Part shown: in pieces, positions 24,690 to 35,513 of the stretch
Layout of the letters: every line of letters starts with the position of its first letter
Position numbering within the stretch: the first letter of the stretch is position 1
NCBI RefSeq assembly: GCF_038871235.1
Contig: NZ_JAVZIN010000008.1
Coordinates: 11,369 to 75,368 of the forward strand
DNA: 64,000 nucleotides
Origin: Candidatus Hadarchaeum sp.
Lineage (GTDB): Archaea; Hadarchaeota; Hadarchaeia; Hadarchaeales; Hadarchaeaceae
Direction of reading: 5' to 3'
The notes under the pieces: model-generated
Seen by the model: only the letters and a program-made list of their open reading frames with translations
Databases searched by the model: none
What the model was told of the DNA's origin: nothing
Position numbers and translations under genes: made by a program

Positions 24690-24774
24690 GCGGGGGTAGC
24701 CAAGCCAGGTTGAAGGCGCTGGCTTCAGGAGCCAGTCCCGTAGGGGTTCGGGGGTTCAAATCCCCTCCCCCGCA
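24690..24774 (+). tRNA. tRNA-Leu (anticodon CAG), intronless, long variable arm
   Basis: Acceptor stem GCGGGGG/CCCCCGC plus discriminator A; anticodon arm CTGGC-TTCAGGA-GCCAG (CAG at 24726-24728); T-loop TTCAAAT; TTTAAA TATA box at 24658-24663. Confidence 0.97.
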
Positions 24775-24873
24775 CCTATGTGAGATCTAAGCGGTCCAAA
24801 ACAAATGATGAAATTATTGTTGGTTTCCGCGGTAAATCTCCGCAAAATTGCTGCGGGACTATAAATTTAAAAA

Positions 24874-32788: not shown

Positions 32789-33940
32789 TTAGATATGTAA
32801 CTCGACGACGTCCCTGTCTTCCAGCACGTAGTCCCGCGTGACCTGTTGACCTGGGAATCTGGTCGAACCCCAAACCCGCGCGAACTTCAGCTCCTTGGCA
32901 AAATCCTTATGGACTGAGCGGGCCACGTCCATGACTGTGGAGCCCCGAGGCAAAACTAAAGGGCGTCCCGCTGGCTTCTCGTCTGGTTTCTTGGTGTAGA
33001 CGCGAATCAAGTCGAGCTGCTGGTAAATCCTTCTCTTCAGGTCATCTGGTTTTTCGCCCGTATGCAGCACTTCAAGCAGCCCCCCGAACTCCCGCCTAAT
33101 CACTTCCAACTTTTCGGCGGCGTTAGGTGTGTCAAATTTAGTCAACAAAATAAAGCCTCTAGGGTAAACATTCGACTCGGAAAGGGCTTCCTCAAAGTCC
33201 TCAGGGGTGATGGGTTCTTCAATCACAACGAAAGCATTGTGGATGCGGTGCTCCTGTAGAATTCGCTTTATTTCTACCTCCCCGCCCTCAACCAGTTTCG
33301 CCCCTTTTATTTCGATGCCACCACTGGAGCGTTTTTCGATGCTGACCTTTGGTGGCCTGCAATTCAGCTTGACGCCTACGGCCTCCAGCTCGTTAAGCAA
33401 AATTCTGATTTGGTTGACTGGTTCATCGGAAGCATCGACGACAAGCGCGATGGCGTCGGCGTTACGAGCCACGCTCAGTGGGCGAGCGCCGAGACCTCGA
33501 CCATAGCTTGAACCCTCAACTATGGCGGGCACCTCGACTAACTGTACTTGCACGTCCTCAAACTGCATCATGCCTGGAACAGGACATCTAGTCGTGAACG
33601 GATAATCGGCAACCTCGACGCGAGCGCTGGTAAGGTCCCGCAGAATTTTTGACTTGCCTGAGTTTGGTAGGCCCACTAGAGCCACCTGCGCTGCTCCCTC
33701 CTTCTTAACTGAAAAGCTGGGCCCACCACCTCGACCAATTTTTTTCTCGCGCTTCTCTTCCAATTCCAACCGCAATTTTGCCAGACGGTGCTTAAGCGTC
33801 TTTAACAGCTTCTCCGAACCCTTATGCTTCGGCGCTACTCGGATCATTTCCTCTGTGGCTTTGATCTTTTCCTCCAGCGTTCTGGCCTGAAGATAGCGCT
33901 CCTCCGCTTTTTTATATTCGGGAGTAACATTGGCCGGCAA
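32789..33940 (-). CDS. DRG/OBG-family GTPase with TGS domain
   Basis: PANVTPEY, PKHKGSEKL, GLPNSGKS, DYPFTT and C-terminal TGS (VHKDF...ARVWG...LEDRDVVELH); TTG start at 33940 likely. Confidence 0.92.
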   Translation of the reverse strand: MPANVTPEYKKAEERYLQARTLEEKIKATEEMIRVAPKHKGSEKLLKTLKHRLAKLRLELEEKREKKIGRGGGPSFSVKKEGAAQVALVGLPNSGKSKILRDLTSARVEVADYPFTTRCPVPGMMQFEDVQVQLVEVPAIVEGSSYGRGLGARPLSVARNADAIALVVDASDEPVNQIRILLNELEAVGVKLNCRPPKVSIEKRSSGGIEIKGAKLVEGGEVEIKRILQEHRIHNAFVVIEEPITPEDFEEALSESNVYPRGFILLTKFDTPNAAEKLEVIRREFGGLLEVLHTGEKPDDLKRRIYQQLDLIRVYTKKPDEKPAGRPLVLPRGSTVMDVARSVHKDFAKELKFARVWGSTRFPGQQVTRDYVLEDRDVVELHI

Positions 33941-34053
33941 GATGATCAATGAAAATTTAATCTTTCATAGACAAAAATTTGCCGAAACGGTTTAAGCTAA
34001 CTTTTACCTAAATATTGGAAGTCTAATTCCTAAACTGGAAATATCTCCATTTT

Positions 34054-34071
34054 GCAAAAAATCCTTAAATA
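34054..34071 (+). promoter_or_regulatory. BRE-TATA promoter of the candidate ncRNA
   Basis: GCAAAAAA followed by CTTAAATA (34064-34071), placing the start site at about 34095, where the GC-rich helix begins. Confidence 0.65.
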
Positions 34072-34094
34072 AAAACAAACTCTAATCTTAACTT

Positions 34095-34325
34095 GGCGGG
34101 GATGGTAGCCCGCAGAAGAGGTCGAACCGGAGCCTACGGGCAACGGGGATCCGTGCAAAAACCCGGGCTAAAAACCGGGGAAGGGCGCGGATAATTCCTG
34201 TGGAAGAACAGGATGGGACAAACGCTGCGGGAAGAAGACCCTGACGAGAAAAAATGGCGAGCAAGCGAGGTGGTCGAGGTTCGCGAGCTCGTTAGGAGAG
34301 TATTGGAGGGGTCGAAATCCCCGCC
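34095..34325 (+). ncRNA. Candidate structured non-coding RNA (~231 nt), family unassigned
   Basis: Terminal helix GGCGGGGAT/ATCCCCGCC. Nested helices CCCGCAG/CTGCGGG, ATCCGTGC/GCGCGGAT, CCCGG/CCGGG, TCCTGT/ACAGGA, CCTGACGAG/CTCGTTAGG and GCGAGC/GTTCGC with A/G-rich linkers. Promoter upstream, T7 tract downstream, no ORF of 60 aa or more. Confidence 0.75.
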
Positions 34326-34327
34326 GC

Positions 34328-34334
34328 TTTTTTT
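34328..34334 (+). terminator. Oligo-T terminator of the candidate ncRNA
   Basis: TTTTTTT begins 2 nt after the 3' strand of the closing helix. Confidence 0.65.
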
Positions 34335-34337
34335 AGG

Positions 34338-35513
34338 TTAAGTGAGAAACTTGAAATATTTCAATGCTCTTCTAATCCCGATGGATTTCAAGAGTTCTGG
34401 CGCCTTTGCAACCAGCGCAATGATTAACTTTTCGTGATGGTCAAAATCAAAATTTTTCAACACCGTCTCTCTGACTTCCTCATCCATCAAAAAGGTGGAT
34501 AAAAAATTAAGATCCTCATTTGACATCTGATCAAACAATTTCTTGATCTGGATGCCAACGCTGAACTCCGTGCCGAACTTTTTCATGACCGCTTCCTGGT
34601 AACACTCAAGTTCTTCCATTCTGCCGCTTTCGAGAGCGTTTATCACGGCCTCGGCCGCAAGTTTGGCACAGGACAAACCGATGTAAATGCCTCCGCCAGT
34701 GAGCGGCTTAACCTGCCCGGCGGCATCCCCAACTAGAAGCACCGCTCCCTTTTGAATCTTACGGGACATACATTTCGGGATCACACCCGTGCATCGGCTG
34801 AAGATAGTTTTACCAACCTTTTTGGAAGCTACTGGGTGCTCGGAAAGAAATTTTTTAAACAATCGAGTTGGATTGCCACTCTTAGCGCCTAGGCCCACTC
34901 TGGCAACCCTGCCGGCTTTAACCATCCAACTAAAGAATCCTGGTGAAAAATTGTTATCTAGATAAATTTCAGCGACGCCGTTATCTAGGTCCGCCTCCGC
35001 CTCTACCTGTGCACATTTGATGTACTCATTGCTGACCAAAAGACCTGACTTGCGAGCAACAACGGAAAGTGGACCATCAGCTCCAATCACAACCCGAGCT
35101 TTTAACTTATCCACATCTTGGGTTTTTACCATTGGCCCATCATTGAACGCAATATCAACACACCTTTTGTTCAAAACTAGGTCCGCGCCGGCCTTGACCG
35201 CGGCATCGGCTAGCGAACGGTCAAATTTCACCCGGTCTATCACCAACGCCTCAACTTTCCCTCTTGTCAATTCAATGGGGACATTAGAAGGGGGATAAAT
35301 CTTGGCTCTTCTTAACTTGCCCAACACCCATTTTCCGGGTTTGATACCGAGCTCTCCAAGGCCACTCGCGCCCACTATGCCAGTACAGCAAGCGGGTTTG
35401 CCCACCTCGGAGTGCTCCTCGACTATCGCCACCCTGAGCCCGCGCGCTGCCAAGATTTTCCCGGCAAAACACCCCGCCGGCCCTGCGCCAACAATTAGGA
35501 CGTCAGTTTCCAT
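34338..35513 (-). CDS. Geranylgeranyl reductase family flavoprotein (DGGGPL reductase-like)
   Basis: GAGPAG, PACCTG, IGADG, PGFFSW and VGDAAGQVKPLTGGGI motifs. Confidence 0.9.
   Translation of the reverse strand: METDVLIVGAGPAGCFAGKILAARGLRVAIVEEHSEVGKPACCTGIVGASGLGELGIKPGKWVLGKLRRAKIYPPSNVPIELTRGKVEALVIDRVKFDRSLADAAVKAGADLVLNKRCVDIAFNDGPMVKTQDVDKLKARVVIGADGPLSVVARKSGLLVSNEYIKCAQVEAEADLDNGVAEIYLDNNFSPGFFSWMVKAGRVARVGLGAKSGNPTRLFKKFLSEHPVASKKVGKTIFSRCTGVIPKCMSRKIQKGAVLLVGDAAGQVKPLTGGGIYIGLSCAKLAAEAVINALESGRMEELECYQEAVMKKFGTEFSVGIQIKKLFDQMSNEDLNFLSTFLMDEEVRETVLKNFDFDHHEKLIIALVAKAPELLKSIGIRRALKYFKFLT

Follow-up and report, generated by a model that had tools for sequence, protein, structure and literature searches.

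The 64,000-nt stretch of Candidatus Hadarchaeum DNA analysed here (the window) contains, in the spacer between two protein-coding genes of the - strand, a 231-nt island rich in G+C and purines (34095-34325, + strand; G+C 0.585 vs 0.325 in the surrounding spacer), which is very probably a genuine new structured RNA gene. The gene on its 5' side (32789-33949) encodes a DRG-type GTPase with MMR_HSR1, MMR_HSR1_Xtn and TGS domains and is divergent from the RNA gene; the gene on its 3' side (34338-35513) encodes a FAD-dependent geranylgeranyl-reductase-like protein (GGR; FAD_binding_3 and related families) and is convergent with it. The island is copy A of three in its own genome, as identified from its fold, its homologues and the covariation among them. 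The original prediction had described this island as a structured RNA with its own promoter and terminator, and every sequence element that it listed, the helices of domain 1 included, was found in place.

Analysis of the flanking DNA revealed the elements of a dedicated transcription unit. In an alignment of 50 full-length members of the family, a palindromic element (TGGAAATATCTCCA, 34036-34049, + strand) lies approximately 46-59 nt upstream of the RNA start, followed on the same strand by a conserved BRE-like A-rich stretch and TATA box (34054-34071; TTAAATA at 34065-34071, or CTTAAATA at 34064-34071). Most homologues keep (A)6-7 TCC/TCT TTAAATAG, which ends at a fixed ~23-25 nt ahead of the RNA's first G, the presumed start site. 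The TATA box of the locus lies about 27 nt upstream, and the geometry fits that of archaeal promoters. A profile of the upstream region matched only RNA copies A and B in their own genome (E 3.2e-8 and 5.4e-7, all other matches having E>1); its sole match in the RNA-positive genome G037 was the RNA promoter, and it had none in the RNA-negative genome G016. This upstream module is thus exclusive to the RNA genes, and the palindrome is a likely transcription factor site.

At the other end, a GC followed by a T7 tract (34326-34334, + strand; T7 at 34328-34334) comes directly after the helix that pairs the ends of the RNA, and in almost every homologue a T-rich tract begins 0-2 nt past the final paired C. 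Oligo-T is an established archaeal terminator. The conservation of the TATA box, the upstream palindrome and the oligo-T tract at fixed distances bears out the promoter and terminator originally proposed. A further complementarity around the gene (CTTAAC 34087-92 / GTTAAG 34337-42) was taken as chance because it was not kept in the closest relative.

Secondary structure and covariation

The + strand of the locus gave a predicted fold of -114.5 kcal/mol, compared with -74.6 +/- 4.2 for 200 dinucleotide shuffles (z -9.53; 0/200 as good), and the fold of the - strand was weaker (z -5.47). In an alignment of 29 homologues, compensatory changes were found in 36/61 consensus pairs, and 97.8% of cells were paired vs 88.8% in column shuffles (0/500 reach it); sliding the partner strand by 1-3 columns left only 35-45% of cells paired. 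The top 21 column pairs by mutual information, computed from 69 distinct sequences, were all pairs of the proposed structure, indicating that the helices evolve through compensatory change. Together with the conservation of the locus, these results bear out the earlier claim of a structured RNA.

Coding potential was also considered, and a protein-coding small ORF was rejected. The start codon of the internal ORF was kept in 10/29 homologues in the + frame and 3/29 in the - frame, the aligned frames ran into stops in 15/29 and 7/29 homologues, respectively, and variable sites were distributed over the codon phases as 0.64/0.73/0.70, with no 3-base periodicity and no coding signal.

The transcript folds as a three-way junction of P1, domain 1 and domain 2. 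P1 (GGCGGGGAT 34095-34103 / ATCCCCGCC 34317-34325) joins the 5' and 3' ends through 9 bp, seven of which are in the consensus and three of which show compensatory changes; columns 9-245 of alignment A3 covary too (Watson-Crick 0.94), lengthening this helix. Domain 1 consists of a P2/P3 stem bearing a four-way junction with the hairpins P4, P5 and P6. This stem is formed by P2 (CCCGCAG 34109-15 / CTGCGGG 34225-31), which closes the domain, and P3 (34121-23 / 34217-19), with compensatory changes in 7/11 pairs and 97.8% of cells paired. Hairpin P4 (34127-34146), which has a 4-nt loop and a GA/AA tandem as its internal loop, is nearly invariant, and covariation in only 1/6 of its pairs is explained by a sequence that hardly changes. 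Hairpin P5 (34151-34190) comprises P5a (34151-56 / 34185-90) and P5b (34162-66 / 34175-79), separated by an invariant A-rich 5x5 internal loop and capped by an A-rich terminal loop; the helix originally placed at 34149-56 / 34185-92, with an inner CCCGG/CCGGG, is present, as is the TCCTGT/ACAGGA pairing. In P6 (34195-200 / 34209-14, spanning 34195-34214), 6/6 pairs show compensatory changes. A purine-rich joiner leads from P2 to P7, with invariant columns at 34232-34236; the consensus GGAAAAAAG covers the end of P2 and part of this joiner. All of these elements, like those of domain 2, are on the + strand.

Domain 2 (34237-34313) forms an extended arm of P7 to P10, and here the earlier pairing scheme stood only in part. 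Its inner helix corresponds roughly to P10 (34265-69 / 34280-84), but its outer helix (CCTGACGAG 34240-48 / CTCGTTAGG 34288-96) had only 68.2% of cells paired and two compensatory cells, no better than shuffles, and was replaced by three pairings that covariation supports: P7 (GACCC 34237-41 / GGGTC 34309-13), P8 (CGA 34245-47 / TTG 34303-05) and P9 (TGGCGAG 34255-61 / CTCGTTA 34288-94). Between P8 and P9, GAAAAAA (34248-34254) faces GAGTA (34298-34302), and both strands of this internal loop are invariant or nearly so, short paralogues included. By the consensus AGUA/GAA, this loop is a putative bulged-G motif of the loop-E/sarcin-ricin type. No canonical K-turn was seen in the RNA by eye. 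The terminal loop of P10 (GTGGTCGAGG, 34270-34279) has a core, TGGTCGAG, that is invariant in the 230-232-nt forms, and several of the 202-215-nt paralogues shown have a shorter arm above P9, capped by a 4-nt GAAA or GAGA loop.

In the alignment of 29 homologues some 70 nucleotides do not vary, and purines and A-tracts located in junctions and internal loops account for many of these. So many invariant junction nucleotides imply that the RNA adopts an exact fold in three dimensions and performs a specific biochemical task. It is thus well suited to structure determination, to pull-downs of partners and to assays for ribozyme activity.

Distribution, paralogues and expression

A covariance model (R1/R2; 231 positions and 61 pairs, P1-P10) found full-length homologues in 51/66 genomes of the phylum, at 1-6 copies each, and gave 102 matches among the loci searched. 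BLAST found homologues in 39/61 relatives, nearly all full length. The locus itself matched the R1/R2 model over its full length, placing it in the new family; copies A, B and C of its genome scored 248.2, 249.1 and 105.8 bits, respectively. In a neighbouring phylum (38 genomes) there was only one match, at 14.8 bits and E 0.08. Among genome contigs, 52 pattern matches were found, all but L046 of which were searched with the model; two, L057 and L060, both labelled as bacteria, lacked a model match and were attributed to chance. The RNA is absent from well-assembled genomes of the same family and so is dispensable, and its confinement to one phylum, with some lineages lacking it, indicates that it is not a universal housekeeping RNA.

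Gene neighbourhoods were conserved only locally. The DRG gene lay upstream of the RNA in 30/70 distinct loci and the GGR gene downstream in 38/70, but this synteny was restricted to one family and included no RNA-related neighbours. The three copies in the own genome are flanked by DRG/GGR, by an oxidoreductase and NifU-IscS, and by glutamate dehydrogenase and glutamine synthetase, providing no functional hint. A cis-regulatory leader or riboswitch was rejected on the grounds that both neighbouring genes run on the other strand, the oligo-T tract comes right after the RNA, and the neighbours of the paralogues are unrelated.

The presence of several copies per genome, with tandem pairs in one genus, might be expected of a repeated or mobile element, such as a SINE-like sequence or what is left of an intron or retron, and not of a functional cellular RNA. 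Against this stand the conserved synteny, the divergence of copies by compensatory changes, the conserved promoter that copies bear, the lack of any match to the family in viral contigs and phage records, and the lack of a reverse transcriptase or transposase gene adjoining the three own-genome copies. We therefore regard a mobile origin as very improbable.

Evidence of expression came from one metatranscriptome. RNA library X4 contained 99 contigs on the RNA, two among those listed having depths of 5132 and 1400; these are assembled contigs of one RNA library, from which strand, ends and true level are not readable. X4 had no contigs on 33700-34073, on the DRG side, where an uncovered part is no evidence either way.

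One X4 contig raised the question of a circular form, in which the paired 5' and 3' ends would be ligated. This contig has 42 letters ahead of position 34096 that match a homologue's 3' end (...GAGTA...CCCGCC plus 2 nt) and run head to tail into the 5' start; P1 holds both ends close to each other. Archaea are known to have circular stable RNAs, and ligase-dependent circular C/D box sRNAs have been reported there (PMC9014305). However, the junction was seen in a single contig, and an abundant RNA would give the same picture through chimeric ligation or chimeric assembly; a search for the junction pattern over metagenome contigs yielded one stretch, L099, which was due to chance (0 covariance-model matches). 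No bulge-helix-bulge motif was evident at P1 by eye. Circularisation by an Rnl-type ligase was rejected, no gene for a PF09414 RNA ligase having been found in the own genome (94.75% complete). A circular mature RNA is thus unlikely overall, and it would be compatible with a scaffold, ribozyme or multimer function alike.

Relationship to known RNAs

To our knowledge, archaea have few complex structured RNAs beyond rRNA, tRNA, RNase P RNA, SRP RNA and guide sRNAs, and we know Hadarchaeota from metagenomes only. We are highly confident that the locus represents a family of stable structured non-coding RNA that has not been described before and occurs only in this phylum of hot-spring and subsurface archaea. 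No description of the family was found in the literature, and Rfam 15 gave no credible match at gathering scores, at E<=10 for the locus (33950-34450) or at E<=5 for nine divergent homologues, so that ten family members were covered by the relaxed tests. The original prediction had proposed a new class of archaeal stable RNA, or else a known one in extremely divergent form, and had named what might overturn it. On each point the outcome was favourable: a known Rfam family was lacking even at relaxed thresholds, canonical RNase P and SRP RNA genes were found elsewhere in the genome, conservation and covariation in relatives were both strong, an RNA library held many contigs of the family, and codon-level conservation of the short internal ORFs was absent.

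The archaeal stable RNAs of this size class (200-320 nt), RNase P RNA and SRP (7S) RNA, resemble the new RNA in being stable, G+C-rich and structured, in being transcribed from a promoter of their own, in having both ends paired in a terminal helix, and in standing out from an A+T-richer intergenic background. In contrast to them, the new RNA is multi-copy, found in one phylum only and missing from some lineages. Their own-genome genes were identified by RF00373 (RNase P RNA, G000:C7:68657-68944, 198 bits) and RF01857 (SRP RNA, G000:C14:14838-15145, 154.7 bits), neither of which matched the locus (E<=10) or the nine homologues (E<=5).

A 5S rRNA carrying an insertion was considered as well, the Halococcus 5S rRNA being a 231-nt molecule with a large insertion. 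The likeness includes the paired ends, the three-way junction, an arm with a loop-E-like internal loop, multiple copies and the lack of linkage to other rRNA genes, but by eye there is no wider similarity to the own 5S sequence. RF00001 did not match the locus and instead identified a canonical 121-nt 5S gene elsewhere (G000:C1:83538-83658, 93.6 bits). In a 5S search of five genomes, four RNA-negative and one RNA-positive (G014), 4/5 scored over the cut-off, G014 included, and G045 gave a weak partial match only (22.1 bits, at a contig start), indicating that RNA-negative relatives keep their 5S.

Y RNAs and bacterial Y-like RNAs share with the new RNA several paralogues per genome, an end-pairing stem and an oligo-U 3' end, which the oligo-T terminator would encode here. 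Typical Y RNAs are, however, less than half as long, no Rfam Y RNA model matched, and the genome, at 94.75% complete, has 0 TROVE (PF05731) matches and thus no Ro60 gene, whereas the Deinococcus and Bacteroides controls were positive. A tRNA or tRNA-like element was excluded by the tRNA model and ARAGORN, both negative at the locus; the window has a single tRNA gene, for tRNA-Leu(CAG), at 24690-24776. With canonical RNase P, SRP and 5S RNAs in the same genome and all of these models negative, an extremely divergent version of any of these known RNAs is most improbable.

Two further classes were compared with the RNA. No Rfam snoRNA or sRNA model of C/D or H/ACA guides matched, and neither a 3' ACA box nor a hypervariable single-stranded segment was seen in the alignments by eye. 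Hgc RNAs of A+T-rich hyperthermophiles are similar in standing out as islands of G+C and purines within spacers of low G+C; as no Rfam family matches the locus or its homologues, the RNA is none of Rfam's Hgc families, whose size and architecture presumably differ from those of the new RNA.

In sum, archaea gain a complex structured RNA whose secondary structure, comprising 10 helices and 61 mostly covarying pairs, is well determined. Its phylogenetic range is clear, its promoter is dedicated to it and apparently regulated, and there are signs that it is expressed; an Rfam family could be seeded from models R1/R2 and alignment A3.

Candidate functions and partners

Bacterial RNAs of the OLE, ROOL, GOLLD and raiA type are also similar to the new RNA, sharing a conserved intricate fold, invariant unpaired purines, restriction to particular lineages and high contig depth in RNA libraries. 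Unlike them, the new RNA is archaeal and smaller, with a dedicated promoter bearing a family-specific palindrome; it resembles them neither in sequence nor by model, and nothing links it to prophages or viral contigs. By analogy with ROOL, GOLLD and OLE, it might form an RNA-only homo- or hetero-multimer, and a preprint on GOLLD and two other large bacterial RNAs describes such complexes (bioRxiv 10.1101/2024.12.08.627333). The shared profile of ornate, lineage-restricted orphan RNAs and the several paralogues per genome are consistent with this possibility. However, at 231 nt the RNA is much smaller than these examples, and neither covarying pairs between loops nor a palindromic kissing loop came out of a mutual-information scan, leaving a multimer with a low probability.

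Catalysis has a comparably small chance of being the function of the RNA. The many invariant positions in junctions, which would form the catalytic core, and the multi-helix junction architecture would suit a ribozyme, as would the GAAA/GAGA tetraloop cap above P9 in some short paralogues, a peripheral swap typical of large folded RNAs. On the other hand, no Rfam model of a self-cleaving ribozyme (hammerhead, twister, pistol, hatchet, HDV-like and others) matched even at relaxed thresholds, no substrate or cleavage site is evident, and the RNA is dispensable in some lineages. A hammerhead-like stretch (CUGACGAG, 34241-48) was not conserved, its first bases being CAA, UAA, AGA or AUA in homologues.

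We propose instead a trans-acting role for the RNA, as a folded scaffold that does not base-pair to targets and whose invariant loops most likely serve to bind one or more proteins. A search of the own genome for antisense targets yielded only 12-16-mers, which is chance level, and the paralogues shown had no hypervariable single-stranded segment that might serve as a guide, differing in helices and in the P10 arm. Three loops are candidates for protein binding: GAAAAA/GAGUA, putatively of the loop-E/sarcin-ricin type, the GA/AA tandem of P4 and, in P5, the A-rich 5x5 loop. A dedicated transcription factor would set the level of the RNA, and the outcome would be either an abundant RNP or sequestration of a protein. 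Protein binding as the function is a tentative assignment, somewhat less than evenly supported, and the explanation as a whole, a new RNA gene with a trans-acting protein-binding scaffold as its product, has about an even chance of being correct. A broader formulation, which we hold to be possible but doubtful, is that this abundant, transcription factor-controlled structured RNA, without counterpart in other archaea, is the core of a new RNP or a ribozyme, possibly made circular by way of the terminal helix, each paralogue being adapted to particular partners or conditions.

Comparison of genomes with and without the RNA was used in a search for protein partners, which identified none. Four candidates from the 101 ORFs described below were surveyed over 66 genomes, and none tracked the distribution of the RNA. 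DnaK (13/66 genomes), a DUF134 protein (30/66) and an ArsR-type regulator (45/66) did not follow it, and a 405-aa protein of no known family (54/66) was present in the RNA-negative genus g15 (6/7) and not in the RNA-positive family f5 (0/3). Some close relatives are cleanly without the RNA gene, so the family is suited to finding a partner by comparative genomics. In the own genome (G000), 101 ORFs were present in RNA-positive G037 and absent from RNA-negative G016; a Pfam survey, from which 2/79 references were dropped for in-frame stops, identified among them DnaK/DnaJ/GrpE, aldehyde:ferredoxin oxidoreductases, molybdopterin synthesis proteins, pilus genes and transporters.

Secondary structure and covariation of the RNA

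The 231-nt RNA gene at 34095-34325 (+) belongs to a genuine, previously undescribed structured RNA family specific to the Hadarchaeota, and both its secondary structure and its gene model are well supported; the original prediction of a new class of archaeal stable RNA, or an extremely divergent known one, stands, with correction needed for one helix only. Every sequence element listed in that prediction was found where it had been placed: the BRE-TATA element CTTAAATA (34064-34071), a T7 tract (34328-34334), the 9-bp terminal pairing (34095-34103/34317-34325), the closing helix of domain 1 (34109-34115/34225-34231), a helix with an inner CCCGG/CCGGG (34149-34156/34185-34192) and, within the RNA block, TCCTGT/ACAGGA. 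The block is an island of G+C and purines (G+C 0.585 versus 0.325 immediately upstream), and its + strand fold (−114.5 kcal/mol) was far more stable than 200 dinucleotide shuffles (mean −74.6, sd 4.2; z = −9.53), none of which reached equal stability. The weaker − strand fold (z = −5.47) is expected, since the G-U pairs lie on the + strand.

Relatives provided both the conservation and the covariation anticipated for a structured RNA. Of 61 related genomes, 39 gave BLAST matches to the RNA, nearly always along its entire length, and R1, a covariance model derived from 29 homologues, found it in 51 of the 66 genomes of the phylum, at one to six copies per genome (families f1, 39/45; f2, 6/6; f3, 1/1; f4, 1/9; f5, 3/3; f6, 0/1). 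RNAalifold, applied to a MAFFT alignment of the 29 sequences, gave 61 pairs in ten helices (P1-P10), with compensatory changes in 36 pairs. In a separate pair count, 97.8% of cells were paired versus 88.8% in column shuffles, and although none of 500 shuffles reached 97.8%, this figure is not a probability because the aligned sequences are related; with the 3′ partners shifted by 1-3 columns, the fairer comparison, pairing fell to 35-45%. Double-change cells in consensus pairs numbered 172 versus 42.7 expected. A mutual-information scan of 69 distinct sequences ranked 21 structure pairs highest; its only addition was a lengthening of P1 to 9 bp, and it gave no pseudoknot. Together these data show a precise fold preserved by compensatory evolution.

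The helix requiring correction is the proposed outer helix of domain 2 (34240-34248/34288-34296), which was 68.2% paired with two compensatory cells, inside the shuffle range. The pairing supported instead comprises P7 (34237-34241/34309-34313), P8 (34245-34247/34303-34305), P9 (34255-34261/34288-34294) and P10 (34265-34269/34280-34284).

The family is new, having no credible match in Rfam 15 and no description in the literature searched, and the known RNase P, SRP and 5S RNAs are encoded elsewhere in the genome (1.2 Mb, 16 contigs, 94.75% complete). At gathering scores, the 4227 Rfam families matched the whole window only at a tRNA elsewhere in it, a tRNA-Leu(CAG) of ordinary type whose variable arm is long (24690-24776, +); ARAGORN found no tRNA at the RNA locus. 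Relaxing the threshold to E≤10 gave two non-credible matches at the locus, one to an unstructured vertebrate lncRNA model (10.1 bits) and one outside the RNA, and nine divergent homologues gave no match at the RNA position at E≤5. The canonical SRP and RNase P RNA genes, whose presence elsewhere had been raised as a check, lie on contigs C14 (154.7 bits) and C7 (198 bits). Searches of the literature on non-coding or structured RNA of Hadesarchaea, Hadarchaeota or Hadarchaeum gave no account of the family, and supplementary files could contain unlisted candidates.

An expanded 5S rRNA was considered because of the terminal helix, three-way junction and loop-E-like loop, and was rejected because the genome has a canonical 5S gene (contig C1, 93.6 bits). 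A 5S search of four RNA-negative genomes and the RNA-positive G014 gave matches above the cut-off in four of the five; RNA-negative relatives thus retain 5S rRNA, G045 by a weak and partial match only. Protein coding was also rejected: the aligned start codons of two internal ORFs were kept in 10/29 and 3/29 homologues, stops interrupted the frames in 15/29 and 7/29, and variable sites showed no 3-base periodicity across the 29 homologues.

Transcription unit and expression

The RNA is shown by its flanking signals to be a separate, regulated transcription unit. Archaeal BRE/TATA promoters are expected about 23-25 nt before the start, and the regions preceding the RNA in 50 full-length homologues share an A-run, then TCC/TCT and TTAAATAG, ~23-25 nt before the first G. 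The terminator likewise holds up, with a T-rich tract starting 0-2 nt past the final P1 base in nearly all homologues. A cis-regulatory element was ruled out, as both neighbouring genes, DRG (a GTPase gene, 32789-33949) and a geranylgeranyl-reductase-like gene (GGR, 34338-35513), lie on the opposite strand and the terminator is directly 3′ of the RNA.

A palindrome, TGGAAATATCTCCA (34036-34049), lies 8-10 nt upstream of the BRE/TATA, with the same position in homologues (e.g. L002, L012 and L032). An upstream-region profile matched only copies A (E 3.2e-8) and B (E 5.4e-7) in the own genome (others E>1) and only the RNA promoter in the RNA-positive G037, with no match in the RNA-negative G016; across three whole genomes, the palindrome was confined to genes of this family. 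This pattern points to a dedicated transcription factor or regulator, which would be the natural reading of the palindrome.

Evidence for expression of the family is good but not conclusive, since assembled contigs are uninformative about the transcribed strand, the transcript ends and the real level, and DNA may be present in an RNA library. The sediment metatranscriptome X4 contained 30% of the words sampled from a 1001-nt stretch around the gene. When X4 contigs were placed on 33700-34700 at ≥90% likeness, 99 fell on the RNA (18 at ≥99%, 30 at 95-99% and 51 at 90-95%), mostly at 34107-34209, its most conserved part; two of those listed had k-mer depths of 5132 and 1400, and a 318-nt contig identical to the window (depth 41) spanned 34247-34563.

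In one X4 contig, the 42 letters before 34096 come from a homologue's 3′ end, fused head to tail with the 5′ start. On either reading, circle or chimera, the mature ends fall at P1. A circular mature form would fit this contig but is unlikely: ligation or an assembly chimera of an abundant RNA fits it also, and the junction pattern gave only a chance match over metagenome contigs. No PF09414 RNA ligase gene was found in the 94.75% complete genome.

Distribution and paralogues

The RNA is lineage-restricted and dispensable, being missing from well-assembled Hadarchaeota genomes and from the neighbouring-phylum genomes searched. A broader covariance model (R2) gave no credible match when run on 38 genomes from a neighbouring archaeal phylum and, at E≤1, no match in five well-assembled Hadarchaeota genomes previously RNA-negative. 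When one genome per prokaryote species was scanned for an exact pattern, 52 loci emerged, 48 of them titled Hadarchaeota, Hadesarchaea, Hadarchaeales, Hadarchaeia, Hadarchaeum or Hodarchaeaceae; of 51 loci tested with the covariance model, 49 matched and two bacterial-titled loci failed. The RNA was absent from a viral contig collection (pattern scan) and phage records. Two of the five RNA-negative genomes, G016 and G029, have the GGR-like and DRG genes directly adjoining (gaps of 41 and 15 nt); RNA-positive relatives carry the RNA gene between the two, on the opposite strand. Among 70 distinct loci, several too short to display flanks, DRG was upstream in 30 and the reductase downstream in 38, all in one family.

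The own genome carries two further copies. Copy B (C5:3908-4137) is 80% identical to copy A, with compensatory changes between the two already in P1, P2, P5 and P6, and neighbours an oxidoreductase with NifU/IscS. Copy C (C5:21009-21210, L089:1501-1702; 202 nt), found by covariance model (105.8 bits), neighbours glutamate dehydrogenase and glutamine synthetase; its promoter region differs, it lacks the palindrome, P1 is not followed directly by a T tract, and the arm above P9 is reduced and has a different terminal loop. Short paralogues (202-215 nt) retain P1-P9 and the conserved joiners and, where displayed, have a reduced arm above P9, which in several ends in a tetraloop, GAAA or GAGA. One genus has a 203-208-nt paralogue in the space separating DRG from the 231-nt copy, ~90 nt upstream of the latter (L018:1211-1413 and 1501-1731; also L021, L024, L041, L066, L080, L081 and L084), with a TATA-like box and a T tract at each copy. 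A midpoint-rooted FastTree of the 69 distinct sequences, made without further tests, separated long from short forms and, for this genus, placed copies A and B side by side; duplications accordingly appear to have been recent in some cases and older in others.

Possible function and partners

We infer that the RNA, with its invariant unpaired purines and several paralogues, acts in trans as a folded scaffold; a search for antisense targets in the own genome gave nothing beyond chance 12-16-mers. It may bind a protein as a scaffold or sequester one, a reading we offer tentatively. P8 and P9 are separated by an invariant internal loop (GAAAAA opposite GAGUA) that fits the loop-E/sarcin-ricin consensus, a common protein-binding module. 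P4, which contains a tandem GA/AA loop, hardly varies in sequence, suggesting sequence-specific recognition. A ribozyme and an RNA-only multimer would, like a scaffold, be compatible with a circular form; both the ribozyme and the multimer seem unlikely. No TROVE/Ro60 gene was found in the 94.75% complete genome.

Gene-content comparison identified 101 ORFs of the own genome present in G037 and absent from G016, with Pfam families covering chaperones (DnaK/DnaJ/GrpE), tungsten/molybdenum enzymes and cofactor synthesis, pilus genes and transporters, and including two small regulators and ~20 proteins without a family. Of these candidate partners, four were profiled over 66 genomes and none tracks the RNA. 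The GrpE-DnaK-DnaJ set lies at C1:51007-54555 in the own genome and C1:21475-24742 in G037; a DnaK query had a patchy distribution (13 of 66 phylum genomes, in two genera of the own family and one other family). A single in-frame stop occurs in each of two tblastn matches in G037, L215:7250-8467 (−) to a MoeA-like gene (C5:15901-17142 in the own genome) and L216:2783-3427 (+) to a 257-aa ORF; pseudogenes, sequencing errors or recoded codons could account for them.
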